64,000 bases of DNA. It comes from Leptogorgia sarmentosa (lineage: Eukaryota). Of this stretch, positions 1,173-64,000 are shown one piece after another. Both the position numbers and the translations under genes were made by a program. The DNA is taken from positions 744,001 through 808,000 of the forward strand of contig OZ210885.1 of NCBI GenBank assembly GCA_964658305.1. The letters are read 5' to 3'. The notes below the pieces were generated by a model that saw only the letters and a list, made by a program, of their open reading frames with translations, did not search any database and was not told where the DNA came from. Position 1 is the stretch's first letter; every line of letters begins with the position of its first letter.

Positions 1173-1427
1173 GGCGAGTGCGGGAAGGCGAAGAATTGTA
1201 TAGAAATTTAACTGATGATGATAACTTCAAGTGTCCACAAAACTTTGCTCCAGTCTTCTTTCAAGAGGCACTAGACTCTCTCGACCCTGCCTTAAGAGCG
1301 CAAGCTCAAATGGTGTGTGGCAATGACCTCACGTGTCTCTTCGATATTGCTGCAACAGGAAATGTTGCTCTTGGGGAATCAACTTTATCCGAAAGCACTG
1401 AAATTCAAAATGACATTACAATCCTAG
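1173..1427 (+). CDS. Gene A exon: Cys-containing region following VWD (WRVREGEE...VCGNDLTCLFDIAATG)
   Basis: C-x4-CLFD-x3-TG motif as in MUC4/SUSD2-type post-VWD regions; near-identical to 33869-34123, which directly follows the VWD exons of gene B. Confidence 0.85.
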
Positions 1428-40200: not shown

Positions 40201-43200
40201 AAAATTCTCTCCATCAGTTAAAGACGAAAATACTGTAGAGGATATGGCAGATCCTCCACCAAGTGCGACACAAGAACAGCAGGATAACTCTATTGAAATA
40301 ACTTTGAAGAATTTTCAAAGTGAAAGCGTGAGTTTTTGTCATGTTTCAGAATCTATAAAATTGTAGATACCTAATTTTCTTCGTTCGTCGTTTCCGAAAA
40401 AGACATTTCCTACCTCTATTGGAATTTGACAAAAATTCAAGTAAATACAAACTGACATTATAATACGACTTCATTTCAGCTCATTTACACTTTTTATCTT
40501 TTCAGATATAACCAGACCTTAATGCTTATCATATTTTTTTCATTGTAGTACACGGTGGATGCTGACATCAAGTTTAAAGATTCAGTAGTTGATATAATTA
40601 ACGCGTTTTGTAATGTAAACACATTGCGACCTCAAGATTGCGGCGTTTCCCAGTAAGTCAGAATAATCCCTGATGCTATCATGTTGCACCACAGAGAGCC
40701 CAAGCGTCGTGCTCATTCGTGTTGAATGTTTTTTCAGTTTATTTATAAAATCTTTTATAATTGTAATTCTTTTAATAATCCATTATATATTAGCTTTCAA
40801 GCACCACCCTTCAAACATGACAGTCTGTTGGCAGGTTAGTATCGTGGGAGACACGCGCGATGAAGCGGGACAATAATTTAAATACAGGGTAATTTGTGGG
40901 GCAATGCGTAACCAGCTCTTATTTCAAAAACAGAATAAATTATTGTCTCCTTTTTTTGGCTCCCGTCTCCCACGAAGTAACCTCCTAACAGGCCGTCACG
41001 TTTGAAAGCTGGTGCTCAGCAGCTACTTTATAACAGATTTTTAAAAGAATTACAACTATAATAGATTTTAAATGAATAAACTGAAAATCATTCAACACGA
41101 ATCAGCACGACGCTTGGGCCCCTGTGGGCGCGCGCACCAATCGACTTATTTCATATTATCTCTGATGTGACACGAATACTTTGTTAAGATAATTCATGTG
41201 AAATGATTGTAAATGCATTGGGGCGGGTTGTTTGTAGTCCGTTTAGCTTTAAACTGCGGATAACTGAAAATAATTTAAAATTACTCTCCAATACCTCTTG
41301 CGAATAACTAACTGAAGATAAATTTTACAATCTAAATATGCAGTTGTCTACATAACGGTGCTCTTATGAGAGTAAAAATTTTTTATTTTGATATTGTCCA
41401 ATGAATTTTTGGACTCGCCTAAAATTCTCGACTGGATACACTGTAGTAGCTAAAAAGACCACACGAACAACCGCCCGTTGCTACTTTTGATCGTGATGCG
41501 AAATAGTACATGATTGGAGGTAAAGAAAGTTTGAATGACATGGAAACAAACCGTCCATAAGGTTTTCGCTCTTATAAATCGATTGATGTGTTAGAAATGC
41601 AACATATCGGATATTGTTAAATGACGGGTCGAACGTATTACCAATATAATGTTCAGGTGAATCAGATGTTTTCTATTAAAATTATTGTATAAATTGTAGT
41701 TTGGTATAAATTATTCCTATCTAATTTCATACAAAAGTATAATTTGTGGCGTATTTCAAGAGTTGTTACAATTATTATCTCAACATATAGTTTTTACTCA
41801 TATTGTTTTTTATAGAAACAAAATCTCATTCAACCAATTGAACGTGAAACGCCTGCCAGGCTATCCACAAAACAGCGGCGCCAACACAACAATCAAGTTC
41901 TACGTTGATTATCCAGTAAGAACAGGATCACTTCCGAAAACAACACTGGCATCCATAGTGTTTGCAAAATTAGAGAGCTTTCAAAATGCCACTGGTTATT
42001 GTATTATTCTCAATACTCCTGTTACCCCAGACGCCCCGGCAGATCCAACTGATGATCAAAGAGATAACTCAGTCGTGTTACAAATAATTGGCTTCAGTAA
42101 AGCTCAGGTATTTCCTACAGCAAGAATTTCTAATAATATTGCACCTCACAATGACATCATCACATCAAAAGCTTAAATTTGTACCACGTGTCCATAATTA
42201 AGATTTTCTGGGGACCATCATGCCATAGAGACGTTCAATATAACCTTGAAAATATAAACGAAAATAGAATTCATTTTCCAGAGAAATAATCGTTAGGAAT
42301 AATGGGTCTAAAATAGGTCAACTGATTTAATTAGAGTATAATTTATCTTTTTTTTCCTTGCAGTGGACAATAAGTTATGACAGCATATTTCGCCGTTCAG
42401 TCGCTCTTAGTCTGACAAGATACTGCGACGTTATTGACAATGACGTGTACCCTCGTACCCAGGACTGTGAATTCTCAGGGTCAGTATGTTGATTTTTTTG
42501 TCTGGTTATGAAGATTTTGATGTTATCCCCGTCATCAAAATTTCAGTAGAGCTGAAAAATTATACCTGAACGTGTTTTGTTTTGCTATCTGATCGCCAAG
42601 GTTGCAAGATCACCTGAATAAATCCGCCAAAATTTTAACGATGCTCTTTGTTTTTCTTTTTATTTTGTTCTTTTGTTTTCATTGTCTCCTTGACGGTTTG
42701 AGTAATTTATTCCGGAATAATGGCAACCCTGTTGATCAATGTCAATAGACAATGAAGCAAAGCATTGAGGTATCAACAGGCTGATCTACTAAAGGGTGTA
42801 TCAGGGAAAAAGCTAGTCTTTGAAATTCAAATTAGCCGTGTTTAATTTAGTATAATATAATTCTGATCATGGCTTCACCAAAATGAAGTGTGTTGGTATT
42901 ATATCCAATATCAACTTAACATAAATTGTAGATGACTTGTGTCGTGACAGGAAAGGCTTCAGCTTCAAGAGCGACGTGATATTCCTTTTTGGATCGCATT
43001 CAACTTTGAGTTTCAATTCCGAATTCAGAAGTATCGCTATATTAGTAACCAAGCAATTAATGAAATAGCCCGCGGTTTAAATCGAAATAACATTTTTAAG
43101 CCAAGTTGAAGCTTTTTCATTTATTATAATAGCTCATATAAATATGTTATTGACTGAGTGTGAGGTCCGAACTGGAAGATACTGCACGGTCGAGTTCTTT

Positions 43201-46200
43201 TCTCCCTTGTATACGGACCCGAGCTGAAACTCAGTCAATAAGCTATTTATTATATGGCAAAAGATAAACAAAACTCGTTTACAACAATTCAACACTATGA
43301 ACAAAGCCGGTAAACGGCTAATTAACATAAGAACAGCTGTAAAATAAGTTCGCTAAAAATTGTTCTCTAAAATGTTATTGGTTACCAAAAAAAAAAGAAC
43401 AGAATGTTCAAAAATTTGTTAACTTATTTCGTCTTCGTTGTCGCTCGATTCAATAAAAAACCGACGTCGCTAAACCAGAGCGGTCGAACTTCAGGTTACC
43501 GACCGCTCAGGAACCAATCAGAATGCTGTATTTTAGGGCCGCTCAGAAACACTTCCCATATAATAAAAAAGCTTATACAAAACTTTTCAGGTCGGTGACA
43601 GGCTATAACCTCACTCATGTTGCACGACTTCCTGGATATCCCAAAGACGCTGCATCGAATATTGTTAACGTTTCGTTTTATGTCACAAACCCGAGTACAT
43701 CAACTCCAGTTCCACGAAAAGTACTTGCATCAATGTTGCTCATTCAGGAGTCAATTTTAGAGAACGCGCTTTCTCAGCAAGTAGTATTACAAACCTTTGC
43801 TGGACCAGATACTCCACCAGTAGCAAGCAGTGAGCAAATTAATAACAGTGTGGTAATTCGAATATCGTCATTTACACGAGAACAGGTATGTATGAATTGA
43901 AAAAATATATAATTTGTGCGCTTCAAATAATTATTATAGGCTCGTTTTATTAATATGTCTACAAAAATTCAACAGAACATATTAGACATATTAATTATAG
44001 TGGAAAATTGTGAGAAGGACGGAATGTTCTATTCAAAGTGAACAAAAGTCAATATTATGCCTAATTCCACGAAACTGCTGTCCTATCCAATCCCTGGTAG
44101 AGAAGAGTTAATATCATGTTACGCACAAAAATGTATTTTTCCGTATTCTTGATCCGTTCCCTATGTCCATCATGCAAGTCCCTGCTTGAATGCCTTTTTT
44201 TCGTTTTCGTTACAGTGGACATATCTGAATGATCGCCGTTTAAGAAGAGCAATATCAAATCGGATTACGAACTTCTGTAACCAAACTAGCCAACGTCGTC
44301 TCGATTGTCAAATCACAGGGTAAGTTTAATTTGTATTCCTAAATATGGCCAGTGCATGGCGTAAATCTTCAGCAATGCATCCCGGTTGAAGTGGTGTGGG
44401 GAGGGCCCCTTGATTATACCTCTTAGCTATAACTCTACAAAATATACGAAATACACATTTTTCGAGAACATACAGTAATATGATAGATTAGCTAGCTATT
44501 TAACATTTTATCCACTACGTCAATTATAGTAGTGGCATCTCCGTTTTTACATATTGCTTAAAAACGGGCAACCTCAATCGGCAACCAAATTGTTCCAGTT
44601 ACCGAATATTAATAATTTTGTCAACTCCGAGCTCAGGAATCAATCTCATTGTATCGTTTTGGTATAGACAGTAGAATTTTCGCTGCTTGTTGATATTGAA
44701 GCTGTATTAATTCTCAATGTTTTAATTCTCAATAATGAGTTATTCTCAATAAGTTTGCTAATTCTCCATAATTATAGTGACACCAGAAAAAGGGGGCACA
44801 ATTTTTTAGTAATAATTAAATTTTTACAACTTCTTCCGATTAACAATACGCTAAACCCATCACTAGGAAAATGGATTGATATGGTAGTCGCAGTCTAGCT
44901 TGAAATAAAATATCCGTTAATCAGGAAATCAATGTCTTTTTGCAGTGACGCTGTGTTGTTCACGGAAACTGACGTGCACCGAACATCATCAGCCACGCCT
45001 TCCAATGTCGCTGGTAACAGTATCGACTACAGTTTTTACGTCAACTATCCCATTCAAAATGTTCCAATTGTTGGCAATATATTAGCATCGATTGTGAAAT
45101 ATGAATTGTTAAGAATGCATTCGGAGTCTGCTCTTTTCTTCTCCCTGGAAACATCGTTCAGTCCTTATACACCCACGCCGCCAACATCAGCTCAGTCCAG
45201 CAATACTGTACAGATCAGGATTTTTAATCAATCGTCTACTGAGGTATATAATCTTTATAATGTTTGCCCTCGTTTAAACGTATACCATATTCTGTTGCAC
45301 ACGGGTATATTTTGTCCCATTTTTTTGCGAACATACTGTATAAACTCCGATAATGACAACTTCTGTTCAATTGACTTTTTCCAATTTCCTTGCAGTGGAC
45401 GGCTATTAAAGACAACAGATTCAGAAATTCAATAGCAAACCAAGTTGGTGCTTTTTGTTCAGATTATTCGGTCGCGTGCGTCCTTAACACAAGGAGGTAA
45501 AGTCGTACAAGATGACAGTTTTTACCAAACGACATTCCTATTTCTGATGCAATATTTCAAAAAATGTTATAACAACAATAGCACAATGCGTTTTAACTCC
45601 GAACGTGGCTACCATAAATTACCTTCTGGCGTACGGTTTTATGTACTTTCCAAACTTGAAAAATTGCATCGCGCTATAGTCATTCTAAAAAAGTTAGTAT
45701 AAAATTTATGGCGTCTAAAGTATCTCCTCCAATCTTATTGGTCGAGAAATTCCGACTTCCAGGCGATAGTCACAGGAAGTACAAATAATAACAACATTTT
45801 AGCCTAACGTTGACAGTGAATAACTTCCCTAATCCCAATAATATTATATTTTGCTAGGCAAGCTGTATAATTATGAAAACCTGGTCGAGCATAAGTGACA
45901 TGTTTATTAAATATTCTGTACTATTTTAGTGACCTGACATCGTTCTCACCATCAAATGTGATTCGGATTCGAAGTTCCCCTGTGCAAGATAGATATCATG
46001 TCATTTATACTTTGTTTGTGGTCTATCCATCTGACAGTGGACCAATTCAGCAAAATTTACTGGCAGCCATTTTAACTATTCGACTTGAAAATATTGAGAA
46101 CGAAAGCAACATGACACTTCAAATAATCACATCAAATCTGGCACCGTCTCCTCCTGATGCCGACTCAAGTAAAACTGACGAATCAGTAACCATGATAGCG

Positions 46201-49200
46201 CTTAATATTCAAGCCACGCAGGTAATTAACAAATATAACTTTGTTGAGGCAATGAGACTGAATTACTTTTATTTCACGAAATATCTTGGAATCAGAAGTA
46301 TAGCAACTGTATACTGATTGCGAATACACCTCGAGATAGTTCGTGGACGTTTCCACTGGTGATTTTATTCTGCATGCAATAAGTAGTATTCCCAACACCA
46401 ATATAAAGTCTTCAAGGCTTCGGCCAGATCAGCTAACACCTCATAGAAATCTGGAGTTCATAACCTAATTAAATTGTTTTTCTGTTTCAGTGGTCAGCCA
46501 TTCAAGATAACAAATTCCGTGGTTATGTTGCCCAGGCAATTGTCGAATATTGCACAGCAAATAATGCACAACGTGATGAATGTGACCTTCCCGCGTACGT
46601 TTTTGACTAATTTATCTCATTTTATGACTTCCTATACTATTAGTGAATCTTGGAAACTGCGAATTTATTTTAATTTATTCATTATAAAAAAATATTATAT
46701 CTTTAATATCTATAAAATTATTCTTTTCCTGGCCGTTTGTCGTTTGACGTTTGAACGTGTAGCTTAAACTCTCTAGTTATAATTCACATAGCGGAGACGT
46801 TTGAAAATTAGAATTTCTCGCCACAAAAGTATGTATGAATGTTTGCCGACCTCTTACTGCGTAAAAAAATGTCATTGAATCACTTGATGATTCTGTTTAT
46901 CACAATATTTCGTGTTGTTTTGAGCTAACTTTTGCGATAAGGTTCCATCCATCAGTTCACATTAGACAGTAATCTGAAACCTAAAATCTTTGTTTCAAAG
47001 ATCGTGATGCAACAATCGACGTCGTTTGATGCCCATCCATCAATTCATGTCGCTTGGGAAGCGATTTGAACACCCATTCTTTTAATAACGTTTTCAAATA
47101 CTCACGTTTTTCATCCTTCCACGTTACGCGACATTAGATGGCATCACTATTTTTGAAGCTGCTCAAAGATTAAAAGATTATTTATTCGGTTGCATGACAA
47201 ACAAGAAATTTCGGAAATATCACAATTTTTCAATTATCAGTTTGTGGTTTTCAAAAAACATATTCATTCCTCTCATTCGCACTAACAATCTCCCTCGCCA
47301 TATCTACCTTTACTCTGCATTCATATTTTATTCTCTTTAGAAATGACGCTACGTTTACACAAGATCACGTCCAACGTGTCCCAGGTTCACCCACAGAAAA
47401 TGGTGATGATTCTGAAATCGAATTTTATGTTAATTATCCTGGTGGTGGTACAATGTCTAAGGAAATTTTACTTTTGATCATGAATGAGAAAACCGACTCT
47501 ATTGCCAATAATACTGAAATGGCTCTTGTGTTGATAACTCCCGAATTTCCAACACCTCCTCCAGCAACACGCAGTCAAAATGAAAGCGCTGTCTCTGTTG
47601 TATTGAAGAATTTCCAAGTGGGCGAGGTTTGTTTGCCTGGGCCATTAATTTTACAATCGCAACTTTTGATGCAATTTAATTCTATTTAATTGTCCTTTTG
47701 ATGGAAGCAACCTCATGGCTAAGAACTCGATGTAACTTTTCGATGTTCCAGTTACGCGTTTTTACACGTTGCTACGTGTACGCATGTAAAATTCTAAACC
47801 CCTCATTAATAAAATATATTTAGAAACACATACTACATCATTTAAAGTATGAGATGCTTTACATTTAAATCAATTTCAAGTTTTTCGTGCATACACGTTA
47901 CACGTACGTAAAAAAACGCGTAATTGGAAAAGAGCCTTTAGGCTGAAAATTTCAAGTTCATTGATACAAAAACGTAAAATCATTGAATTACACGAGCAAA
48001 GGCTCCAAGGGCGAGCGAATGACTTAATAGTAATAATGTGAAAATGGTGAATAGAAACCATTAAACGGCAAAGTGAAATATTAAAATGTTTTTAAAAGAC
48101 TCGCGCGATATCTGCAGAGTGGCGTTAATTTATTCTAACATTGTACCTTTAGTGGCCTGCCAGAGATTTGCTGTTTCGACAAAATATGGCTAAAGAAATC
48201 CATGACTTTTGTAGCACTTCAGATTTCCATCGTACTCTTTGTAACATCACAAAGTGAGTATTTTGGATACGTCAGAAATACAACATTAGACATAGATCCT
48301 CAATTTCGAGCAATTGTAATGGTAAAAAATTATAAAAACTTTGTTATCGTTAATTTTGCTATCCTTTTGTCACTTCACCAATGGCATAATATTCCAGTGT
48401 TATTTGACTTCATTTCAATTCCGGTATTGCGTTCACCTGATTTGCATGCATTATAAAACTGTGTCCGCAAAATAGGCTATCTATTCAATGCTTGTACATT
48501 ATACTTTAACAGCAAATGTAAGACAAAGATGTTAAATTTAAAAATAATATGCAATTAATTACAAATCTTAGCAAACAAATTCTCGTGGGAGTTAACTTTC
48601 ATAACTTCCCTGAACATATCAATCAGTCCTTCCCTAATTTCTTGTTGGATCTGTATAATTGTCAGCGATATTCGTTTCTCTTTCAGTGACGACCTGAACA
48701 GCCTCACAAGTGCTGACATTCAAAGGCTGCCTGGTTCTCCATCACAAAATGGCACTAATTCAATCCTCAAATTTTACGCACAGTTGACAAGCGGTAGAAT
48801 TATTCCTAAAACCATCTTGGCCACCATCTTCGTAGAAAGACGGGAAAAAATATTTTCACTTGACAGCAGTCTGGAAGATTTCACAGAAAGTTTTACATCT
48901 GATGAAACAGTTCTTACTCCAGAACAACAACAAAATACAGTTCCTATTGCAATAATTAACTTTCTTCGTTCAAAGGTGAGGTAACAAGTCTGAGAGAAGT
49001 TACAATTATATTTGTCGGTCATAATTAAATTTGGCCGATGTTTAGCGAATGAATCTTGTTTTTCTACGTCGCGTATTTACGATGAACTCATGAAAGTGTT
49101 CACAAATCCTTTTGCATGGCGTACCTGCATAAGTTGTTTTCTTTATATCACTTCAAAATTTTAGTTTTAATGTTCATATCATGTGCTGCTATAACTATTT

Positions 49201-52200
49201 ATCGACAATACCAAAATTGTCAAAATTTTGTCAGTACCATATTAGGCTTGCAGCGGTTAGCTTTACGTTATTGTTGTCACAGCAAAAATGGACAACGTTT
49301 TGCAAATAATGATTGAGCAGGATTAAGCAATGTTTTGCTGCCTACAGTAATTGTTCACAGTTATTTTGTTATTGCCACGCCCGATTCAGTCCCAACAATA
49401 ATTTGTTGACAACCATGAGCAAAATGTGGGCAGTCAAACGCTGTTCAATCCTGTTTTACTGCAGACTGAAAATTTTGGTTTGTAGGATATATACATTAAA
49501 AATTGAAGGTATTTCCTCAATTACACTTACGTGAAGTATATTTTATTTAAATTATATGTTCCCTTGCTGTAGTTCACATCCTTGCGAAAGATGGATATCC
49601 AAGTGTCAGTTGCACGAAGAATGAATATCTTTTGTTTTACAACAGCTGCAGATACGTGCGGTATTACTAGGTAGGCATACAATCACTGTTCGTAGCCTAC
49701 TATTTTTAGAACATGAAATGCACAAAGCGAATAAGAGTTATGACCGTATGAAAATCTGATCATTGTTACGTATGTTTCCTTCTTGTTAATAATTCTCGAT
49801 ATCAGAATGAGTAAACTGCATTTGGCTAAGTTCTTCGTCCGGAATTTATGTGGTTGGTCTAGAGAACAAGTTAAAGTAACATGTGACAAAATTAAAAGTG
49901 GTTGAACCAACAATGTATTAAGGCATCATATTGGATTCCTTTTTATTTCCAGGCCAAGAAGAAGAAAACGGGCTGCGACGTAAGTTATTTCACTTCGTGA
50001 AACTAGTGGCCATCCCTGTTCTTTAATATGAAATAACTAATTATGCGGTGTTAAGACAAAAAAGATACATATCATTTTTCACTTGCAAAAACCACTAACT
50101 ACTCTAAGCGTCTACTTTGTTGAAAAAATAGAAACAAGGCAACAACGTAATGATAATTATACACTTTAACCCTCCCAATTACCTATTACGCATAAACCCC
50201 GCATATCAACATGAGCTATCATGCTTTAGAGAAAGGTCACGGTAGATAAATATCTGGAGAGCTGACAAAGGTTCCATCTGACCACATATGCAGTGACTGC
50301 AGTTACATAAGCTCTTCCCATTAAGAACTCTGTCTTACACTTTAAAATTACTATTACGCTCCGTCCATGCAATAAGTAGAATTAACAACTAAATGAACTA
50401 TCTCTCTAAATCCTCGTATATATTTTTGGCAGCGATCAATTCAGTGATAATGACGTCATAGTTACTGGCGTCATGGCAGCCGGAAATGATACAGTTATCA
50501 ATGTTGTTGTCAACGAACCAGGAGAGAATAACTCAGTTCCAGCTAATATTGTTGAAGAAGCAATGCGTGAATCCATTGAAACTGATAACACATCACTCAT
50601 TACTGGTTTACAACTTGCTCTTGTTAATACACCGGAAGTAATTACAACCAATCAACGTTCCAACGCAGTCAGTGTTCGCTTACCAAACACTCAGGCGAGT
50701 GAGGTGAGTTGACTCATTAATCATTCAACGAAACCTCTCAAACAGGAAATCGATTGGGAAAAAATCCCCAATGTGAAAGCGCGCAGCAATTTTTTCATGA
50801 AAATTGAACTTGTTATGGAATTAGTTTTAATTCTGTATTATTATTTGCATTGAAATTAAACCATGTTGTTCAAATGAATACATTTTAGTGGCAATTTGAG
50901 GATGAAATATCATTCAGAGAAAATATGTCGGAAGCCATTAAACAATTTTGTGGAATGAGTGCGTTACATCTGGATTTGTGTGGCCTTACTAGGTATGTAT
51001 CATTTAAGGAATGACAATGAGCTCTTCGGGCGAGTGTTTCCACACATTTATCATTTCCTCCCCAGCAAAGTAATTTTGGTTTCTTTTGCAACTATATCCT
51101 GCACGTATCGGAGTTTGTTGCTGCGGAAGGAAATGCAATCACACATGTTATTGTAAATCGTATCCGCGTCACTCCAACATTATGTTACAATGTTTTGTCC
51201 AGATCAAATGGAAATTTGTCAACAACAAACAAACTGGTGTCAAATTGAGGACTGATATTGTTCCTTAATTCTGATAGTGTTCGGTCCATCGCGTTTATGG
51301 TCAATTTGAGCTGTATGCATGTGGATCAACTGCTCTTGAGTTTCCCTTGCTTCTCGATATCAACCTGGAAAAATACGGCTTACAGCAATATCTCATTATT
51401 TCATTATAGTGCTCAAGTTAATGAAATCCAACCTTTGAATGTGAGGACATTGCCTGAATCTCCAAGTCAAAATGGAACAGACACCATACTGTCGTTCTTC
51501 GTGGATCTACCCAGTGGAACAACTATGCCTTTGGATCTTTTGACAACAATATTCATGTCATCACCAAACGTTCTTTCACAAGCAAACAGTGTTATTTCAG
51601 CAACAAGCGAAAACCCTGTGCTTACAGATGCTGAGACTAAAAACCTCGTTCCCTTGTCCATAATTATCCCAGCAAACAAGGTAAAATATCCCCAACAGTT
51701 TCTTCAATCAGTTTCTTTCAACTTTGAGATCAACATTGCGTGCTTTTAATGTAATTAACTTTAGTACATAGAATTCATAAGGAATCCTTCAAAAAATCTC
51801 AAACAGAAAAGGGTGAAAAGTTCAAACGCGTCTCATGTCGAAATGCGTTCAAATTCCACATGTCGAGGAAAAAATGACCTCATTTTCCTTGATTTCGGAG
51901 ATAACATTTCCCTATTTGTTCAAAGATTTGTTCCTTTTTTTTACATTCGAGCAAACATCCTACTCCTCCTCCACCTCCTCCTCCTTAGACCCGCTTTAAT
52001 GTAGTGCATGAATGACGAATCCATCAGGCTTTCTAAATGAGTGTTCATGCTGACTGAAAAAAACCTCAGAATTTAAAACTTATCAATTGGATGAACTTTA
52101 ATTTTATCGCCATATACACGTTTTGTTTTGGGTTTTTTCAGGATGTAAGACTGGATATCCAGGTTTCAATCGCCCACAGATTCAATGAACACTGTAAAAA

Positions 52201-55200
52201 CAATTTCAATGCCGAAATTTGTCCCAGCAACCGGTAAGTATTAGCAGGACATTTTAATACCAAAATGCATAGCGATGGGGAATGGATATTTAATTGAAAC
52301 GAGATGCAATCATCTTATCTGATGATGTTTTAAAAAACGACCATTTGCGGCTTGCCTTCACATTTTGCTTTTGTATTTTCTTAGTTTTTTATACTTGTTT
52401 ATTTTCTTTGATTTCAGGAACTTCACCAAAGATGATATTCGTGTTGTTATTCATCGTAACAATGGCTCTGTCAGTTTTGTGGTCACTGATCCTGATACTG
52501 GATCAACACTTCCCGTGAACCAAATACAAGAATCAATCAGTGGAAAGTTCAATTCCATAATTTACGGTCTACCTTATACACTGGAAGTTACAACCAATCA
52601 ACGTTCCAACGCAGTCAGTGTTCGCTTACCAAACACTCAGGCGAGTGAGGTGAGTTGATTCATTAATCATTCAACGAAACTTCTCAAACAGGAAATCCGA
52701 TTGGGAAAAAATCCCCAATCTGAAAGCGCGCAGAAATTTTTTTCCTGAAAAACGTAAAATCATTGAATTACACGAGCAAAGGCTCCTAGGGCGAGCGAAT
52801 GACGTAATAGTAATAATGAAAATGGTGAATACAAACAAAACGGGAAGGTGAAATATTAAAATGTTTTTAAAAGACTCGCGCGATGTCTGCAGAGTGGCGT
52901 TAATTTATTCTAACATTGTACCTTTAGTGGCCTGCCAGAGATTTGCTGTTTCGACAAAATATGGCCAAAGAAATCCAGGACTTTTGTAACACTTCAGATT
53001 TCCATCGTACTCTTTGTAACATCACAAAGTGAGTATTTTGGATACGTCAGAAATACAACATTAGACATTGTTCCTCAATTTCGAGCAATTGTAATGGTGA
53101 AAAATTATAAAAACTTTGTTATCGTTAATTTTGCTATCCTTTTGTCACTTCACCAATGGCATAATATTCCAGTGTTATTTGAGTTCATTTCAATTCCGGT
53201 ATTGCGTTTACCTGATTTGCATGCATTATAAAACTTTGTACCCAAAATAGGCTATCTATTCAATGCTTGTGCATTATACTTTAACAGCAAATGTAAGACA
53301 AAGATGTTAAATTTAACAATAATATGCAATTAATCACAAATCTTGGCAAACAAATTCTCGTGGGAGTTAACTTTCATAAGTTCCCTAATTTCTTGTTGGA
53401 TCTGTATAATTGTTAGCGATATTTGTTTCTCTTTCAGTGATGACCTGAACAGCCTCACAAGTGCTAACATTCAAAGACTGCCAGGTTCTCCATCACAAAA
53501 TGGCACCAATTCAATCCTCAAATTTTACGCACAGTTGACAAGCGGTAGAGTTATTCCTAAAACCATCTTGGCCACCATCTTCGTAGAAAGACGGGAAAAA
53601 ATATTGTCACTTGACAGCAGTCTGGAAGATTTCACAGAAAGTTTTACATCTGATGAAACAGTTCTTACTCCAGAACAACAAAATAATACAGTTCCTATTG
53701 CAATAATTAACTTTCTCCTTTCAAAGGTGAGTGTAACAAGTCTGAAATTAAATTTGTCCGACGTTTAGCGAATGAGTCTTTCATTCATGTTTTTCTATGT
53801 TGCGTATTTACGATAAAAGTGTTCACAAATCCTTTTGGCGTACCTGCATAACTTGTTTTCTTTATATCACTTCAAAATTTTAGTTTTAATGTTCCTATCA
53901 TGTGCTGCTATACTATTTATCGACAATACCAAAATTGTCAGAATATTGTCAGTACCAAATTAGGCTTGCAGCGGTTAGCTTTACGTTATTGTTGTCACAG
54001 CAAAAATGGACAACGTTTTGCAAATAATGATTGAGCAGGATTAAGCAATGTTTTGCTGCCTACAGTAATTGTTCACAGTTGTTTTGTTATTGCCACGCCC
54101 GATTCAGTCCCAACAATAATTTGTTGACAACCATGCATGAGCAAAATGTGGGCGGTTAAACGCTGTTCAATCCTGTTTTACTGCAGGCTGAAAATTTTGG
54201 TTTGTAGGATATATACATTACAAATTGAAGGTATTTCCTCAATTACACTTACGTGAAGTATATTTTATTTAAATTATATGTTCCCTTGCTATAGTTCACA
54301 TCCTTGCGAAAGATGGATATCAAAGTGTCAGTTGCACGAAGAATGAATATCTTTTGTTTTACAACAGCTGCAGACACGTGCGGTATTACTAGGTAGGCAT
54401 ACAATCACTGTTCGTACTATTTTTAAAACATGAAATGCACAAAGCGAATAAGAGTTATGGCAGTATTAAAATATATTTAAGTCTGATCATTGTTACTATG
54501 TTTTCTTCTTGTTAATAATTCTTGATATCAGAATGAGGAAACTGCATGTAGTCATTGACAAAATCAATGCTACGTTTTCTGGCTAGGTTCTTCGTCCGGA
54601 ATTTGTGTGGTTGGTCGAGAGAACTAATACAAATGCAATACACATGTTAAAGTAACATGTGACAAAATTGAAAGTGGTTGAACTAACAATGTACTAAGGC
54701 ATGATATTGGATTCTTTTTTATTTCCAGGCCAAGAAGAAGAAAACGAGCTGCGACGTAAGTTATTTCACTTCGTGAAACTAGTGGCCATCCCTGTTCTTT
54801 AATGTGAAATAACTAATTATGCGGTGTTAAGACAAAAAAGATACATATCATTTTTCACTTGCAAAAACCACTAACTACTCTAAGCGTCTACTTTGTTGAA
54901 AAAGTAGAAACAAGGCAACAACGTAATGATAATTATACACTTTAACCCTCCCAATTACCTATTACGCATAAACCCCGCATATCAACATGAGCTATCATGC
55001 TTTAGAGAAAGGTCACGGTAGATAAATATCTGGAGAGCTGACAAAGGTTCCATCTGACCACATATGCAGTGACTGCAGTTACATAAGCTCTTCCCATTAA
55101 GAACTCTGTCTTACACTTTAAAATTACTATTACGCACCGTCCATGCAATAAGTACAATTAACAACTAAATGAACTATCTCTCTAAATCCTCGTATATATT

Positions 55201-58200
55201 TTTGGCAGCGATCAATTCAGTGATAATGACGTCATAGTTACTGGCGTCATGGCAGCCGGAAATGATACCGTTATCAATGTTGTTGTCAACGAACCAGGAG
55301 AGAATAACCCAGTTCCAGCTAATATTGTTGAAGAAGCAATGCGTGAATCCATTGAAACTGATAACACATCACTCATTACTGGTTTACAACTGGCTCTTGG
55401 TAATACACCGGAAGTAATTACAATCAATCAACGTTCCAACGCAGTCAGTGTTCGCTTACCAAACACTCAGGCGAGTGAGGTGAGTTGACTCATTAATCAT
55501 TCAACGAAACCTCTCAAACAGGAAATCGATTGGGAAAAAATCCCCAATGTGAAAGCGCGCAGCAATTTTTTCATGAAAATTGAACTTGTTATGGAATTAG
55601 TTTTAATTCTGTATTATTATTTGCATTGAAATTAAACCATGTTGTTCAAATGAATACATTTTAGTGGCAATTTGAGGATGAAATATCATTCAGAGAAAAT
55701 ATGTCGGAAGCCATTAAACAATTTTGTGGAATGAGTGCGTTACATCTGGATTTGTGTGGCCTTACTAGGTATGTATCATTTAAGGAATGACAATGAGCTC
55801 TTCGGGCGAGTGTTTCCACACATTTATCATTTCCTCCCCAGCAAAGTAATTTTGGTTTCTTTTGCAACTATATCCTGCACGTATCGGAGTTTGTTGCTGC
55901 GGAAGGAAATGCAATCACACATGTTATTGTAAATCGTATCCGCGTCACTCCAACATTATGTTACAATGTTTTGTCCAGATCAAATGGAAATTTGTCAACA
56001 ACAAACAAACTGGTGTCAAATTGAGGACTGATATTGTTCCTTAATTCTAATAGTGTTCGGTCCATCGCGTTTATGGTCAATTTGAGCTGTATGCATGTGG
56101 ATCAACTGCTCTTGAGTTTCCCTTGCTTCTCGATATCAACCTGGAAAAATACGGCTTACAGCAATATCTCATTATTTCATTATAGTGCTCAAGTTAATGA
56201 AATCCAACCTTTGAATGTGAGGACATTGCCTGAATCTCCAAGTCAAAATGGAACAGACACCATACTGTCGTTCTTCGTGGATCTACCCAGTGGAACAACT
56301 ATGCCTTTGGATCTTTTGACAACAATATTCATGTCATCACCAAACGTTCTTTCACAAGCAAACAGTGTTATTTCAGCAACAAGCGAAAACCCTGTGCTTA
56401 CAGATGCTGAGACTAAAAACCTCGTTCCCTTGTCCATAATTATCCCAGCAAACAAGGTAAAATATCCCCAACAGTTTCTTCAATCAGTTTCTTTCAACTT
56501 TGAGATCAACATTGCGTGCTTTTAATGTAATTAACTTTAGTACATAGAATTCATAAGGAATCCTTCAAAAAATCTCAAACAGAAAAGGGTGAAAAGTTCA
56601 AACGCGTCTCATGTCGAAATGCGTTCAAATTCCACATGTCGAGGAAAAAATGACCTCATTTTCCTTGATTTCGGAGATAACATTTCCCTATTTGTTCAAA
56701 GATTTGTTCCTTTTTTTTACATTCGAGCAAACATCCTACTCCTCCTCCACCTCCTCCTCCTTAGACCCGCTTTAATGTAGTGCATGAATGACGAATCCAT
56801 CAGGCTTTCTAAATGAGTGTTCATGCTGACTGAAAAAAACCTCAGAATTTAAAACTTATCAATTGGATGAACTTTAATTTTATCGCCATATACACGTTTT
56901 GTTTTGGGTTTTTTCAGGATGTAAGACTGGATATCCAGGTTTCAATCGCCCACAGATTCAATGAACACTGTAAAAACAATTTCAATGCCGAAATTTGTCC
57001 CAGCAACCGGTAAGTATTAGCAGGACATTTTAATACCAAAATGCATAGCGATGGGGAATGGATATTTAATTGAAACGAGATGCAATCATCTTATCTGATG
57101 ATGTTTTAAAAAACGACCATTTGCGGCTTGCCTTCACATTTTGCTTTTGTATTTTCTTAGTTTTTTATACTTGTTTATTTTCTTTGATTTCAGGAACTTC
57201 ACCAAAGATGATATTCGTGTTGTTATTCATCGTAACAATGGCTCTGTCAGTTTTGTGGTCACTGATCCTGATACTGGATCAACACTTCCCGTGAACCAAA
57301 TACAAGAATCAATCAGTGGAAAGTTCAATTCCATAATTTACGGTCTACCTTATACACTGGAAGTTACAACCAATCAACGTTCCAACGCAGTCAGTGTTCG
57401 CTTACCAAACACTCAGGCGAGTGAGGTGAGTTGATTCATTAATCATTCAACGAAACTTCTCAAACAGGAAATCCGATTGGGAAAAAATCCCCAATCTGAA
57501 AGCGCGCAGAAATTTTTTTCCTGAAAAACGTAAAATCATTGAATTACACGAGCAAAGGCTCCTAGGGCGAGCGAATGACGTAATAGTAATAATGAAAATG
57601 GTGAATACAAACAAAACGGGAAGGTGAAATATTAAAATGTTTTTAAAAGACTCGCGCGATGTCTGCAGAGTGGCGTTAATTTATTCTAACATTGTACCTT
57701 TAGTGGCCTGCCAGAGATTTGCTGTTTCGACAAAATATGGCCAAAGAAATCCAGGACTTTTGTAACACTTCAGATTTCCATCGTACTCTTTGTAACATCA
57801 CAAAGTGAGTATTTTGGATACGTCAGAAATACAACATTAGACATTGTTCCTCAATTTCGAGCAATTGTAATGGTGAAAAATTATAAAAACTTTGTTATCG
57901 TTAATTTTGCTATCCTTTTGTCACTTCACCAATGGCATAATATTCCAGTGTTATTTGAGTTCATTTCAATTCCGGTATTGCGTTTACCTGATTTGCATGC
58001 ATTATAAAACTTTGTACCCAAAATAGGCTATCTATTCAATGCTTGTGCATTATACTTTAACAGCAAATGTAAGACAAAGATGTTAAATTTAACAATAATA
58101 TGCAATTAATCACAAATCTTGGCAAACAAATTCTCGTGGGAGTTAACTTTCATAAGTTCCCTAATTTCTTGTTGGATCTGTATAATTGTTAGCGATATTT

Positions 58201-61200
58201 GTTTCTCTTTCAGTGATGACCTGAACAGCCTCACAAGTGCTAACATTCAAAGACTGCCAGGTTCTCCATCACAAAATGGCACCAATTCAATCCTCAAATT
58301 TTACGCACAGTTGACAAGCGGTAGAGTTATTCCTAAAACCATCTTGGCCACCATCTTCGTAGAAAGACGGGAAAAAATATTGTCACTTGACAGCAGTCTG
58401 GAAGATTTCACAGAAAGTTTTACATCTGATGAAACAGTTCTTACTCCAGAACAACAAAATAATACAGTTCCTATTGCAATAATTAACTTTCTCCTTTCAA
58501 AGGTGAGTGTAACAAGTCTGAAATTAAATTTGTCCGACGTTTAGCGAATGAGTCTTTCATTCATGTTTTTCTATGTTGCGTATTTACGATAAAAGTGTTC
58601 ACAAATCCTTTTGGCGTACCTGCATAACTTGTTTTCTTTATATCACTTCAAAATTTTAGTTTTAATGTTCCTATCATGTGCTGCTATACTATTTATCGAC
58701 AATACCAAAATTGTCAGAATATTGTCAGTACCAAATTAGGCTTGCAGCGGTTAGCTTTACGTTATTGTTGTCACAGCAAAAATGGACAACGTTTTGCAAA
58801 TAATGATTGAGCAGGATTAAGCAATGTTTTGCTGCCTACAGTAATTGTTCACAGTTGTTTTGTTATTGCCACGCCCGATTCAGTCCCAACAATAATTTGT
58901 TGACAACCATGCATGAGCAAAATGTGGGCGGTTAAACGCTGTTCAATCCTGTTTTACTGCAGGCTGAAAATTTTGGTTTGTAGGATATATACATTACAAA
59001 TTGAAGGTATTTCCTCAATTACACTTACGTGAAGTATATTTTATTTAAATTATATGTTCCCTTGCTATAGTTCACATCCTTGCGAAAGATGGATATCAAA
59101 GTGTCAGTTGCACGAAGAATGAATATCTTTTGTTTTACAACAGCTGCAGACACGTGCGGTATTACTAGGTAGGCATACAATCACTGTTCGTACTATTTTT
59201 AAAACATGAAATGCACAAAGCGAATAAGAGTTATGGCAGTATTAAAATATATTTAAGTCTGATCATTGTTACTATGTTTTCTTCTTGTTAATAATTCTTG
59301 ATATCAGAATGAGGAAACTGCATGTAGTCATTGACAAAATCAATGCTACGTTTTCTGGCTAGGTTCTTCGTCCGGAATTTGTGTGGTTGGTCGAGAGAAC
59401 TAATACAAATGCAATACACATGTTAAAGTAACATGTGACAAAATTGAAAGTGGTTGAACTAACAATGTACTAAGGCATGATATTGGATTCTTTTTTATTT
59501 CCAGGCCAAGAAGAAGAAAACGAGCTGCGACGTAAGTTATTTCACTTCGTGAAACTAGTGGCCATCCCTGTTCTTTAATGTGAAATAACTAATTATGCGG
59601 TGTTAAGACAAAAAAGATACATATCATTTTTCACTTGCAAAAACCACTAACTACTCTAAGCGTCTACTTTGTTGAAAAAGTAGAAACAAGGCAACAACGT
59701 AATGATAATTATACACTTTAACCCTCCCAATTACCTATTACGCATAAACCCCGCATATCAACATGAGCTATCATGCTTTAGAGAAAGGTCACGGTAGATA
59801 AATATCTGGAGAGCTGACAAAGGTTCCATCTGACCACATATGCAGTGACTGCAGTTACATAAGCTCTTCCCATTAAGAACTCTGTCTTACACTTTAAAAT
59901 TACTATTACGCACCGTCCATGCAATAAGTACAATTAACAACTAAATGAACTATCTCTCTAAATCCTCGCATATATTTTTGGCAGCGATCAATTCAGTGAT
60001 AATGACGTCATAGTTACTGGCGTCATGGCAGCCGGAAATGATACCGTTATCAATGTTGTTGTCAACGAACCAGGAGAGAATAACCCAGTTCCAGCTAATA
60101 TTGTTGAAGAAGCAATGCGTGAATCCATTGAAACTGATAACACATCACTCATTACTGGTTTACAACTGGCTCTTGGTAATACACCGGAAGTAATTACAAT
60201 CAATCAACGTTCCAACGCAGTCAGTGTTCGCTTACCAAACACTCAGGCGAGTGAGGTGAGTTGACTCATTAATCATTCAACGAAACCTCTCAAACAGGAA
60301 ATCGATTGGGAAAAAATCCCCAATGTGAAAGCGCGCAGCAATTTTTTCATGAAAATTGAACTTGTTATGGAATTAGTTTTAATTCTGTATTATTATTTGC
60401 ATTGAAATTAAACCATGTTGTTCAAATGAATACATTTTAGTGGCAATTTGAGGATGAAATATCATTCAGAGAAAATATGTCGGAAGCCATTAAACAATTT
60501 TGTGGAATGAGTGCGTTACATCTGGATTTGTGTGGCCTTACTAGGTATGTATCATTTAAGGAATGACAATGAGCTCTTCGGGCGAGTGTTTCCACACATT
60601 TCGAATTCTCCCAAACTTACACGAGTGTTTACGTAACTCAATGTAAACATAGGAAAATGTTTTCCGTTGTTTTCATAAAATAACAAGATGACAAACGCGG
60701 AATAACGGAATAGCGAGAAGCAGCGGGAAATAGCTGTGTTTACATAATCTCACATCAACACGGCTGTTAGCCAATCACACGCGTGTTGTCTTTTTCACTT
60801 ACTTCCGGTTATTTTATAAAATATATTATAATTAAAGGCATGGTACGAATTTTTTTAAAATCCAAGATATGGCCATATATCTCTCCGTGAAATTTCAATA
60901 TGTCGCTAATATCAACAAGCAGCAAAAGTTCTACTCACTACACTAAACGATACCTTAAAGTTCGAAATTTTGAGCACCAATTCCCGACGAATGGTCTTGC
61001 CTCAAATCTTTGAATCTTATTGTGTGGCTTGGTTAACTTTTACTGTTTTTTGATGATTGTTCAAAAGTCGATCAGCTGTCTGGATCAATATGAATTTTAA
61101 TTTCTTCCTTGAGGTTTTGAAATAAAGAAACTAAAATAATTAAAATTAACTATTCAATATCACCTCAAAATCGCAGTTAGTTTTTAGAGCTATTTCACCT

Positions 61201-63948
61201 TTGAGCAACCTGCCTTTGCAAATGATCATTTAGCATCAGTTAGCATTGCCGACTCTGTATGGAATGCCAAGTAAAATTATCATTTCCTCCCCAGCAAAGT
61301 AATTTTGGTTTCTTTTGCAAGTATACCCTGTACGTATCGGAGTTTTTTGCTGCGGAAGGAAATGCAATCACACATGTTATTGAAAATCGTATCCGCGTCA
61401 CCCTAGCATTATAAGCACCAATGTTTTGTCCAGATCAAACGGAAATTTGTCAACAAACAAACTTGTGTCTAATTGAGAATATTGTTCCTTAATTCTGATA
61501 GTGTTCGGTCGATCACGTTTATCGTCAATTTGAGCTATATATGCATGGGATCAAGTGCTCTTGACTGTTTTCCTTGCTTAGGAAAAACGTGGAAAAACGG
61601 CTTACAGCAATATCTCATTATTTCATTATAGTTCTCAAGTCAATGAAATCCAATCCTTGAATGTGAAGACATTGCCTGAATCTCCAAGTCAAAATGGAAA
61701 TGACACCATACTGTCGTTCTACGTGGATCTGCCCAGTAATAAAACTATGCCTTTGGATCTTTTAACAACAATATTCATGTCATCACCAAACGTTCTTTCA
61801 CAACCAAACAGTGTTATTTCAGAAACAAGCGAAAACCCTGTGCTTACAGATGCTGAGACTAAAAACCTCGTTCCCTTGTCCATAAATGTCCTACCAAACC
61901 AGGTAAAATATCCCCAACAGTTTCTTCAATCAGTTTCTTTCAACTTTGAGATCAACATTGCGTGCTTTTAATGGAATTAACTTTAGTACATAGAATTCAT
62001 AAGGAATCCTTCAAAAAATCTCAAACAGAAAAGGGTGAAAAGTTCAAACGCGTCTCATGTCGAAATGCGTTCAAATTCCACATGTCGAGGAAAAAATGAC
62101 CTCATTTTCCTTGATTTCGGAGATAACATTTCCCTATTTGTTCAAAGATTTGTTCCTTTTTTTTACATTCGAGCAAACATCCTACTCCTCCTCCACCTCC
62201 TCCTCCTTAGACCCGCTTTAATGTAGTGCATGAATGACGAATCCATCAGGCTTTCTAAATGAGTGTTCATGCTGACTGAAAAAAACCTCAGAATTTAAAA
62301 CTTATCAATTGGATGAACTTTAATTTTATCGCCATATACACGTTTTGTTTTGGGTTTTTTCAGGATGTAAGACTGGATATCCAGGTTTCAATCGCCCACA
62401 GATTCAATGAACACTGTAAAAACAATTTCAATGCCGAAATTTGTCCCAGCAACCGGTAAGTATTAGCAGGACATTTTAATACCAAAATGCATAGCGATGG
62501 GGAATGGATATTTAATTGAAACGAGATGCAATCATCTTATCTGATGATGTTTTAAAAAACGACCATTTGCGGCTTGCCTTCACATTTTGCTTTTGTATTT
62601 TCTTAGTTTTTTATACTTGTTTATTTTCTTTGATTTCAGGAACTTCACCAAAGATGATATTCGTGTTGTTATTCATCGTAACAATGGCTCTGTCAGTTTT
62701 GTGGTCACTGATCCTGATACTGGATCAACACTTCCCGTGAACCAAATACAAGAATCAATCAGTGGAAAGTTCAATTCCATAATTTACGGTCTACCTTATA
62801 CACTGGAAGTTACAACCAATCAACGTTCCAACGCAGTCAGTGTTCGCTTACCAAACACTCAGGCGAGTGAGGTGAGTTGATTCATTAATCATTCAACGAA
62901 ACTTCTCAAACAGGAAATCCGATTGGGAAAAAATCCCCAATCTGAAAGCGCGCAGAAACTTTTTTCCTGAAAAACGTAAAATCATTGAATTACACGAGCA
63001 AAGGCTCCTAGGGCGAGCGAATGACGTAATAGTAATAATGAAAATGGTGAATACAAACAAAACGGGAAGGTGAAATATTAAAATGTTTTTAAAAGACTCG
63101 CGCGATGTCTGCAGAGTGGCGTTAATTTATTCTAACATTGTACCTTTAGTGGCCTGCCAGAGATTTGCTGTTTCGACAAAATATGGCCAAAGAAATCCAG
63201 GACTTTTGTAACACTTCAGATTTCCATCGTACTCTTTGTAACATCACAAAGTGAGTATTTTGGATACGTCAGAAATACAACATTAGACATTGTTCCTCAA
63301 TTTCGAGCAATTGTAATGGTGAAAAATTATAAAAACTTTGTTATCGTTAATTTTGCTATCCTTTTGTCACTTCACCAATGGCATAATATTCCAGTGTTAT
63401 TTGAGTTCATTTCAATTCCGGTATTGCGTTTACCTGATTTGCATGCATTATAAAACTTTGTACCCAAAATAGGCTATCTATTCAATGCTTGTGCATTATA
63501 CTTTAACAGCAAATGTAAGACAAAGATGTTAAATTTAACAATAATATGCAATTAATCACAAATCTTGGCAAACAAATTCTCGTGGGAGTTAACTTTCATA
63601 AGTTCCCTAATTTCTTGTTGGATCTGTATAATTGTTAGCGATATTTGTTTCTCTTTCAGTGATGACCTGAACAGCCTCACAAGTGCTAACATTCAAAGAC
63701 TGCCAGGTTCTCCATCACAAAATGGCACCAATTCAATCCTCAAATTTTACGCACAGTTGACAAGCGGTAGAGTTATTCCTAAAACCATCTTGGCCACCAT
63801 CTTCGTAGAAAGACGGGAAAAAATATTGTCACTTGACAGCAGTCTGGAAGATTTCACAGAAAGTTTTACATCTGATGAAACAGTTCTTACTCCAGAACAA
63901 CAAAATAATACAGTTCCTATTGCAATAATTAACTTTCTCCTTTCAAAG
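28247..63948 (+). CDS. Gene B (signal-peptide exon unresolved, 3'-partial): NIDO-AMOP-VWD-Ig-like-7xEGF plus >=18 SEA-like modules; tandem paralog of gene A
   Basis: Exons: 28247-28288, 28680-28804, 29136-29459, 29704-29801, 30492-30575, 30968-31485, 31788-31886, 32713-32844, 33339-33665, 33869-34123, 34699-34898, 35680-36010, 36619-36744, 37332-37454, 37665-37802, 38454-38576, 39314-39442, 40218-40327, 40549-40652, 41816-42107, 42364-42479, 43591-43885, 44216-44319, 44946-45243, 45396-45496, 45930-46221, 46491-46594, 47341-47626, then repeated 9-exon units from 48153; no stop codon seen in the spliced frame. Confidence 0.88.
28680..31050 (+). CDS. Gene B NIDO domain exons
   Basis: LWFNGINFRRLS|VCPNGLVRF...LLAPYWCNAD...YDPLWVGVVSW|KNCFDMLL...YRYVDITW|VIGFRIG|SGT...GRPGQ follows the NIDO motif order (NGxxsF, APyW, PxwxxxxtW, NtFqxxL, YxxIxW, GF, GxPG). 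Confidence 0.8.
31051..31485 (+). CDS. Gene B AMOP domain (3' part of exon 30968-31485)
   Basis: CNKWL...CPLPCP...CVFS...ECCYD...SCCLES...CELFYSLRPPC, the AMOP cysteine pattern. Confidence 0.82.
31788..33665 (+). CDS. Gene B VWD domain exons, with GDPH at 31799-31810
   Basis: ASGFGDPHYLTNDGKNYTFNGCGWY ... QVRT ... ATGFTALAV ... YENNSLGLTGNWNGNVDDDFTLPNG...IFYKFGEEW. Confidence 0.9.
32333..32582. repeat. Long inverted repeat with ~87-bp arms
   Basis: 32333-32420 vs 32495-32582 are reverse complements with few mismatches. Confidence 0.85.
34194..34412. mobile_element. hAT-like MITE with an 8-bp target-site duplication
   Basis: TIR cagtggcgtcgtgg/ccacgacgccactg; TSD cgcgtctg at 34186-34193 and 34413-34420; empty site cgcatctg in gene A near 1484. 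Confidence 0.9.
34699..39442 (+). CDS. Gene B cadherin/Ig-like domain and seven EGF domains
   Basis: Exon-for-exon paralogs of 2105-9235 with identical lengths and phases. Confidence 0.9.
35281..35555. mobile_element. MITE with ~49-bp imperfect TIRs
   Basis: tttacagcagtttcgagtgatgcgcgaccatctaacgcgaaatgtttga / tcaaacatttcgtgttaggtggtcgcgaatcactcgaaacttctgtaaa; the gene A intron here is only 91 bp. Confidence 0.8.
37814..37963. mobile_element. Short foldback MITE
   Basis: aggcagctttggcaaaca...aaaatggcgtga / tcacgccatttt...tgtttgctgaagctgcct. Confidence 0.7.
38995..39206. mobile_element. Degenerate MITE
   Basis: cgtcttccattgcagtcgctttgc..gagcgaac / gttcgctc..gcaaagcggctgtaatggaaaacg. Confidence 0.6.
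40690..41126. mobile_element. Long-TIR foldback element with CACAG...CTGTG termini
   Basis: Inverted similarity runs ~170 bp in from each end (gcccaagcgtcgtgct.attcgtgttgaatg / cattcaacacgaatcagcacgacgcttgggc); empty site in gene A near 10755. Confidence 0.8.
41221..41477. mobile_element. Degenerate copy of the ggggccggtt MITE family
   Basis: gggcgggttgtttgtagtccgtttagctttaaactgcggataa ... cgaacaaccgccc; absent in gene A. Confidence 0.6.
43131..43567 (+). mobile_element. Dispersed non-autonomous element inserted at an ataataaa site just upstream of a splice acceptor
   Basis: Gene A has the empty site ttcatttattataataaaatcttatataaaacttttcag (12609-12647); internal hairpin ttattgactgag/ctcagtcaataa. 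Confidence 0.7.
47746..47929. mobile_element. MITE immediately upstream of the tandem-array start
   Basis: ttccagttacgcgttttttac / gtaaaaaaacgcgtaattggaa inverted repeats. Confidence 0.7.
49953..49979 (+). CDS. 27-nt furin-site microexon (R)PRRRKRAA(T), unit copy 1
   Basis: tttccAG|gccaagaagaagaaaacgggctgcgac|GTaagt. Confidence 0.82.
52418..52649 (+). CDS. Chimeric exon: 5' part of the TM exon fused to the 3' end of the module-7 long exon (also 57194-57425 and 62640-62871)
   Basis: NFTKDDIR...IIYGLP matches 21568-21724; EVTTNQRSNAVSVRLPNTQASE and the following intron start match 18965-19075 and 50635-50800. Confidence 0.9.
52748..57523 (+). repeat. Intragenic tandem unit copy 2 (4776 bp; 1485 coding nt = 495 aa)
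   Basis: Exons 52928-53028, 53438-53726, 54295-54392, 54729-54755, 55209-55479, 55665-55768, 56186-56456, 56918-57009, 57194-57425; ORF-track hits recur at a +4776 offset. Confidence 0.93.
54729..54755 (+). CDS. 27-nt furin-site microexon (R)PRRRKRAA(T), unit copy 2
   Basis: tttccAG|gccaagaagaagaaaacgagctgcgac|GTaagt; differs from copy 1 by a synonymous CGG/CGA change. Confidence 0.82.
57524..62969 (+). repeat. Intragenic tandem unit copy 3 (5446 bp; ~670 bp of extra intron)
   Basis: Exons 57704-57804, 58214-58502, 59071-59168, 59505-59531, 59985-60255, 60441-60544, 61632-61902, 62364-62455, 62640-62871. Confidence 0.93.
59505..59531 (+). CDS. 27-nt furin-site microexon (R)PRRRKRAA(T), unit copy 3
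   Basis: Identical to 54729-54755. Confidence 0.82.
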
Positions 63949-64000
63949 GTGAGTGTAACAAGTCTGAAATTAAATTTGTCCGACGTTTAGCGAATGAGTC
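62970..64000 (+). repeat. Intragenic tandem unit copy 4 (truncated by the window end)
   Basis: Matches 57524-58554; exons 63150-63250 and 63660-63948. Confidence 0.92.

Follow-up and report, generated by a model that had tools for sequence, protein, structure and literature searches.

The closest described systems for the locus studied here are the mucin MUC16 (CA125), the MUC4-like proteins of cnidarians, and several cell-surface proteins that carry a protease site inside a ferredoxin-like domain. The SEA repeats of MUC16 are described as 156 amino acids (aa) long, each encoded by five exons over about 1,900 bp (PMC3431878), and 19 repeats have been reported from long reads (PMC10829539). 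MUC4-like proteins such as Acropora B3EWY9, Corallium CR_2, and Actinia mucin4-like combine NIDO-like, VWD with a GDPH site, C8-3_MUC4, and EGF domains, and some of those from anemones are described with a single C-terminal SEA domain (PMC9080433). KIAA1549, GPR126/ADGRG6, and Notch2, whose SEA-like domains are cut by furin, and MUC1, whose SEA domain is autoproteolytic, have one protease site each, and cleaved SEA domains are described as remaining intact until force is applied (PMC6954182). In this study, we analyzed a window of 64,000 nucleotides from the octocoral Leptogorgia sarmentosa (assembly GCA_964658305.1, contig OZ210885.1, forward-strand positions 744,001 to 808,000). Self-comparison of the window revealed a tandem pair of paralogous genes, here called A and B, and a repeat that runs from 47,968 to the window end. 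Our leading reading, to which we give about an even chance as a whole, is that gene B couples a MUC4-like head to a stalk lengthened by in-frame nine-exon units, that the RRRKR motif in each unit is probably a furin-type cleavage site, and that the cut halves probably stay interlocked and form periodic break-points.

Gene B resembles MUC16 in lengthening its ectodomain through a multi-exon array of predicted SEA-like domains. It differs in that its unit comprises four different domains encoded by nine exons over 4.8 kb, bears one basic motif, and stands behind a MUC4-type head; moreover, the MUC16-type repeat is one SEA domain with a linker with a high content of proline, threonine, and serine (PTS), and neither a PTS linker nor a PTS tract is found in the gene B unit. 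Searches of Pfam, for which 31 exons were each scanned singly, and of PDB sequences found no sequence homology to MUC16. With MUC4 and the cnidarian MUC4-like proteins named above, gene B shares the VWD with GDPH, C8-3_MUC4, and EGF components and a candidate NIDO-like one; unlike them, it carries at least 18 SEA-like modules in its window part (gene A has about 10), has no PTS tract in that part, and is unmatched by Pfam at the AMOP position. Like KIAA1549, GPR126/ADGRG6, Notch2, and MUC1, it has a candidate protease site in a loop within a predicted ferredoxin-like domain of a probable cell-surface protein, but the sites of gene B are serial and each has its own microexon. A multi-exon SEA array is itself known from MUC16; we found no description of the variant in which a MUC4 head is followed by four-domain units with one furin-site microexon each, and the periodic motif, whose cleavage is predicted, is the new part. 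Our literature search, which covered few subscription papers, found neither an octocoral SEA array with furin sites nor a furin microexon. The features of the repeat are as follows.

48153..52649, + strand: unit copy 1, nine exons, 495 codons.
52928..57425, + strand: unit copy 2.
57704..62871, + strand: unit copy 3, in which one intron is longer and exon B9 (61632-61902) is divergent.
63150..63948, + strand: unit copy 4, of which the window includes the first two exons.
49953..49979, 54729-54755, and 59505-59531, + strand: 27-nt symmetric microexon with RRRKR, phase 2/phase 2, its ends spliced in RNA-like contigs.
52418..52649, 57194-57425, and 62640-62871, + strand: chimeric exon B10h, which closes the loop (head of a transmembrane [TM] exon, tail of B8).
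52745..52751: intron junction between units, where B8-type intron meets the one preceding S6.

The nine exons of a unit measure 101+289+98+27+271+104+271+92+232 = 1485 nt, or 495 codons, in copies 1, 2, and 3 alike; copy 4 adds two exons (390 nt, 130 codons) before the window end, and the array has no stop codon. Each module is split into a large exon and a small exon (the B and S exons below), with a Cys pair and a helix encoded by the small one. Units recur with a period of 4776 bp, or 5446 bp across the intron preceding the copy-3 exon B9; owing to indels, the first three exons of copies 1 and 2 are spaced 4722 to 4775 bp apart. An earlier, sequence-only reading of this DNA had described these two periods with at least 3.2 copies, 495 codons per unit, and exactly one RRRKR microexon in each unit, and all of this is borne out, the microexon being present once in three of three full copies. 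Tandem Repeats Finder, with its period limit of 500, did not detect the 4.8-kb unit. The unit product has a mass of 54.7 kDa, an isoelectric point (pI) of 5.0, 10 sequons, and a combined P, T, and S content of 24%. That content peaks at 34% per 100 aa in the window part of gene B, where no PTS-rich mucin tract is present; these values, together with the SEA-like models of homologues described below, agree with the earlier proposal of a stalk made of folded domains rather than PTS sequence. Between copies 1 and 2, 76 aligned positions differ, and the 5' half holds 75 of these; between copies 3 and 2 there are 61 differences, 58 of which lie within one intron and exon B9. This exon accounts for 21 differences in 271 nt and 14 in amino acids, and the intron before it is 670 bp longer and retains a piece resembling a gene A intron. 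The array holds three distinct sequence types. Ratios of nonsynonymous to synonymous substitution rates (dN/dS) are 0.36, 0.41, and 0.52 for the three copies against gene A and 0.35 for copy 1 against copy 2, and the unit copies are under purifying selection.

The unit closes on itself through the chimeric exon B10h. The tenth large exon of gene A continues into the TM helix; B10h joins the 5' 156 nt of this TM exon to the tail of B8, after which come some 100 nt of B8-type intron and the intron preceding S6 (52399-52573 is 96% like 21549-21723, and 52576-52751 is 94% like 50627-50803). The array stays in frame because B10h provides, where the TM helix would be, strand 1 of the module that follows. 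In effect, B10h would turn a "stop at membrane" exon into a "continue" exon, and unequal crossing-over and gene conversion would expand and homogenize the unit copies. The sequence-only reading had given gene A one copy of the same block followed by the TM segment. The TM segment is there; a plain copy of the block is not, as the last exon of the unit is chimeric. Gene A also has two basic microexons.

Of 16 sequencing runs listed, four were examined: X1 and X4, which are DNA from two studies (X1 possibly being the source data of the window itself), and X8 and X9. The latter two have no RNA record, and we call them RNA-like solely on the ground that exons are joined over GT-AG introns in their contigs. 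The junction 52,745 -> 47,968 is present in DNA contigs of both X1 and X4. Contig depth in X1 is 81 to 125 in the single-copy region (six contigs), 432 and 465 in the array (two contigs), and 333.5 at the junction; in X4 the corresponding values are 3.6 to 9.2 (four contigs), 15 to 23.7 (four contigs), and 16.8. Contig depth is no copy number and was not used as one, and these values are compatible with several copies. An assembly artefact alone does not explain the array, whose copies are mosaic and whose junction turns up in DNA from two studies, and the array is present in DNA beyond this assembly. There is good support for a multi-copy array, though not for an exact number of copies. The contigs of X8 and X9 splice S6-B7, B7-S7, microexon-B8, B8-S8, S8-B9, and S9-B10 at GT-AG ends; those of X9 also splice B9-S9 and show S7-microexon as a loose end, and loose ends of both runs include a TM-type exon 10. 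Array exons are deeper in the X8 and X9 contigs, a depth that was not used for ranking expression.

Relatives of gene B were sought by word-index searches, in which 1 of 192 candidates and 3 of 7,994 were named relatives, all octocoral (Dendronephthya, Paramuricea); none of 2,205 candidates was a relative of 3,897 to 5,000 aa, which is weak evidence. The Dendronephthya gigantea protein XP_028408025.1 is colinear with gene B across 2,200 aa (52%). A profile of 16 window exons matched 132 proteins, mostly exon-sized fragments, 131 of which map to gene A modules; the matches include one Xenia protein and, at E 6e-5, one Lingula protein. Module order, basic motif, and the loop from module 10 to S6 are as in gene B in XP_028408025.1 and XP_028408014.1 (Dendronephthya gigantea), CAB3993946.1 and CAB4015194.1 (Paramuricea clavata), and XP_046852406.1 (Xenia sp.). 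Three of these five octocoral proteins carry the precomputed Pfam accession PF26284, under which the module seems to be catalogued already. Their database models end before a third copy or, for Xenia, close with a Thr-rich tract and then a TM segment. As read by eye, the tail of the loop exon is B6-like in Dendronephthya, Paramuricea, and Xenia, whereas it is that of B8 in gene B. Identity between the first and the later S6+B7 segments is 95-100% within gene B, 99% within Paramuricea, and 68% within Dendronephthya; between species it is 35-70%. Since gene models of three other genera share this loop, the unit is likely old, and the comparison suggests that it was homogenized in some lineages and that its junction was remodeled in gene B. 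Repeated origins of the loop may also be considered, because the S6+B7 tree resolves only the clade of the window's five rows (one of six branches starred, the other species being unordered) and because the Paramuricea model, which includes a fused helitron piece, possibly draws its two segments from different paralogues. Beyond octocorals, the matched Lingula anatina protein (XP_013396629.1), a brachiopod membrane protein, has a Cys pair and then R-x-R-R at a similar place in its module, which hints at a wider family. Three near-identical gene models of Dendronephthya gigantea (P0001, P0004, and P0005 in our set) form one cluster, their longest contigs being equal in length, and suggest a tandem cluster like that of genes A and B.

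Structures were predicted for homologues rather than for the spliced window protein, namely Xenia P0083 and Paramuricea P0140, which together cover all four module types. Both models show the order strand-helix-strand-strand-helix. The top Foldseek match of both is ACE2, at E 1.8e-3 for the motif-bearing Xenia model and E 1.1e-4 for the Paramuricea model. Realignment to the ACE2 neck (about residues 611-728) gave Z 11.4 at 2.2 rmsd (root mean square deviation) over 93 aligned residues, and the motif-bearing domain gave Z 10.8 with an rmsd of 2.5 over 99. PCDH15 MAD12 followed at Z 8.8 (rmsd 1.9, 87 aligned; Z 7.9 in the other model), and further matches were CELSR1 (Z 8.0), Nup54 (Z 7.8), phogrin/IA-2 (Z 7.1), and cadherin-23. 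Most of these matches are carried by two modules, and the S6/B7 module is barely tested by them. The matched domains of this set were reportedly classed as divergent SEA domains by Pei and Grishin in 2017. In PMC7547225, MAD12 is described as ferredoxin-like. Each unit is accordingly predicted, from these models, to comprise four SEA-like (ferredoxin-fold) domains. The Pfam SEA profile matched none of the 31 single exons and not the 1,217-aa homologue, the stalk modules matched no Pfam family in scans of single exons except for a weak Collectrin match (E 0.051) in the gene A TM exon, and a PDB sequence search returned only two chance-level matches (E about 0.5).

The Xenia model places the motif (274-278) in a low-confidence loop (271-278) between helix 241-261 and strand 290-300; both Cys of this domain precede the motif, and no disulfide would span a cut. 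A motif of the form R-x-K/R-R stands at the same place in four of four octocoral taxa, although species share only 35-70% identity in the flanking module, and the position of the motif in an apparently exposed loop of a predicted secreted protein would suit a furin substrate. The motif sits within the domain, between helix 1 and strand 2, and strand 1 has an inner position in the ferredoxin fold, so the cut halves would likely stay interlocked. A furin-type protease would cut the motif in the Golgi, leaving strand 1 and helix 1 on the N-side piece and all else of that domain on the C-side piece; on a stalk that is likely membrane-anchored, the chain would hold until shear or pulling separates the halves, and the outer part would then be shed. 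An extension of this idea, which we put forward tentatively and regard as less probable than our leading reading, is an octocoral stalk with serial mechanical fuses made of furin-nicked SEA-like domains, in which the number of fuses would be set by unit copy number and by gain or loss of the 27-nt microexon, and force would shed the coat in 495-aa steps. The position of the motif loop resembles that given for KIAA1549, where furin is described as cutting a SEA-like loop between a helix and strand 2 (bioRxiv 2025.08.18.670743). Autoproteolysis was considered at a G-S motif of exon B10 (52418-52649, 21568-21840), whose hairpin position is like that of the MUC1 site, and was rejected, since Dendronephthya, Paramuricea, and Xenia do not conserve the G-S pair.

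Several points weigh against periodic break-points in a multi-unit gene B stalk. In MUC1, Notch2, and GPR126 the cut is described in the strand 2-3 loop (PMC6954182), whereas the models put the gene B motif between helix 1 and strand 2, so that of the earlier analogy with MUC1 and Notch the fold stood and the loop did not. The authors of the KIAA1549 work are cited as considering that furin processing likely releases the ectodomain, release itself being undetected (PMC13570299). The structural models are those of homologues (Xenia, 55-row alignment with 44 rows from the 132 profile matches and a mean predicted local distance difference test [pLDDT] score of 59; Paramuricea, 52 rows, 39 of them from these matches, and 66), and the motif-bearing model had no Foldseek match at E <= 0.001. 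Gene B has no TM exon or hydrophobic segment inside the window, whereas gene A has one, and the X8 and X9 splice joints are equally compatible with gene A. A spliced B10h-S6 joint was not found among the X8 and X9 joints listed, and no difference interrupts a run of 3,919 bp between the neighboring copies 2 and 3, so that the exact copy number may be off. The last two points, together with a dN/dS of about 1 in the copy-3 B9 patch, are also what would be expected if assembly had inflated the array or if the downstream copies were a recent, untranscribed duplication. We consider this very unlikely, given the three sequence types among the copies, the junction in DNA contigs from two studies, and the same loop in gene models of three other genera. 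RNA-like contigs also carry the copy-2-4 letter at 48214 (172.8 of 172.8 in X9, 15.8 of 39.6 in X8) and, in X8, a copy-3-like B9 end, observations that alleles could explain.

The two remaining explanations accept the array and differ over the motif. One is a polyprotein, in which furin would cut each unit and free pieces of about 55 kDa plus N-glycans into mucus or skeletal matrix, copy number being the subunit dose. One conserved site per 495 aa, the size, pI, and sequons of the unit, and the absence of a disulfide spanning the cut all suit this, as does the description of MUC4-like proteins in skeletal matrices of octocorals and stony corals (PMC7853314, PMC7533068). However, the site falls inside a domain and not in a linker, so each freed piece would bear two half-domains, and strand 1 is an inner strand. 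We find it unlikely as a whole, and of the two options that the sequence-only reading had left standing, free 495-aa subunits are the weaker because the motif lies within a folded domain; periodic break-points are more likely on the predicted structures. The other explanation, to which we assign an equally low chance, is a plain spacer that holds the head off the cell, as is thought for the MUC16 SEA repeats, with the motif uncut or the symmetric microexon often skipped. Gene B does without the microexon that follows S5 in gene A and keeps its frame, an X9 RNA-like contig splices S5 straight to B6, and the description of MUC16 in PMC3431878 gives a candidate cleavage motif in only one SEA domain. 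Against a spacer stand the constant position of the motif in a diverging module and the splicing of the microexon ends in X8 and X9. 

In the literature considered, cleaved SEA-like domains occur once per protein and near the membrane. If our reading is true, one site per repeat offers a natural test of graded, force-dependent shedding, with relevance to the sloughing of surface coats by soft corals or to the attachment of their tissue to the skeleton. The combination of a MUC4-type head with a long SEA-like array bears on the SEA-bearing MUC4 ancestor that has been proposed (PMC9080433). A loop exon common to four genera, with near-identical copies within some species, is also a compact case for concerted evolution of a multi-exon coding unit.

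The remaining features of genes A and B in the window are the following.

26149..26218, + strand: predicted first exon of gene B, signal-peptide-like (an ATG, a stretch of hydrophobic residues, and a GT donor whose phase suits the following exon).
28247..34123, + strand: MUC4-like head of gene B, with NIDO-like exons, a Cys-rich exon where AMOP would be expected, VWD with GDPH, and C8-3_MUC4 (Pfam, exon mapping).
34699..39442, + strand: Ig-like and EGF exons of gene B (Pfam, exon mapping).
40218..47626, + strand: single-copy SEA-like modules of gene B, B1-B6 and S1-S5, with no microexon between S5 and B6.
1173..22286, + strand: gene A, upstream paralogue, with ten modules and a short cytoplasmic exon, its 5' part outside the window.
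21568-21840, + strand: TM exon of gene A.
15818 (RRKKR) and 18160 (RRRKR), + strand: basic microexons of gene A, the first of which is missing from gene B.

The gene B model has 58 exons, all 57 introns are GT-AG, and the reading frame is open for 3,397 aa up to the window end, with GDPH at protein position 425 and RRRKR at 1947, 2442, and 2937. We class the head as MUC4-like by its VWD with GDPH followed by C8-3_MUC4 and EGF. The VWD match has E 1.1e-5 and 26.3 bits against a cut-off of 22.9, C8-3_MUC4 has E 2.1e-14, and EGF_CA is over its cut-off in four of five single-EGF exons; Ig-like matches also occur in the head. A single exon matches NIDO (PF06119) at E 1.1e-4 and 22.7 bits, below the 25-bit cut-off, and AMOP has no Pfam match in these single-exon scans, a 518-nt Cys-rich exon occupying its expected place. 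The Cys-rich exon upstream of the GDPH site (31000-31485) ends in more basic motifs, so extra convertase sites in the head are possible.

The array microexon and its upstream intron (49866-49985) resemble the first microexon of gene A (15818-15844), at 92% over 120 nt, and not the second, and DNA contigs of X1 and X4 connect 49985 back to 47292, in the gene B region 46595-47340. The microexon looks like a cassette that was moved or copied between modules. Contig depth in X1 and X4 is very high at 43054-43897 and 47696-48117, which points to dispersed high-copy intronic elements, and a gene A intron contains an 86-bp tandem repeat of 2.3 copies (4771-4968).

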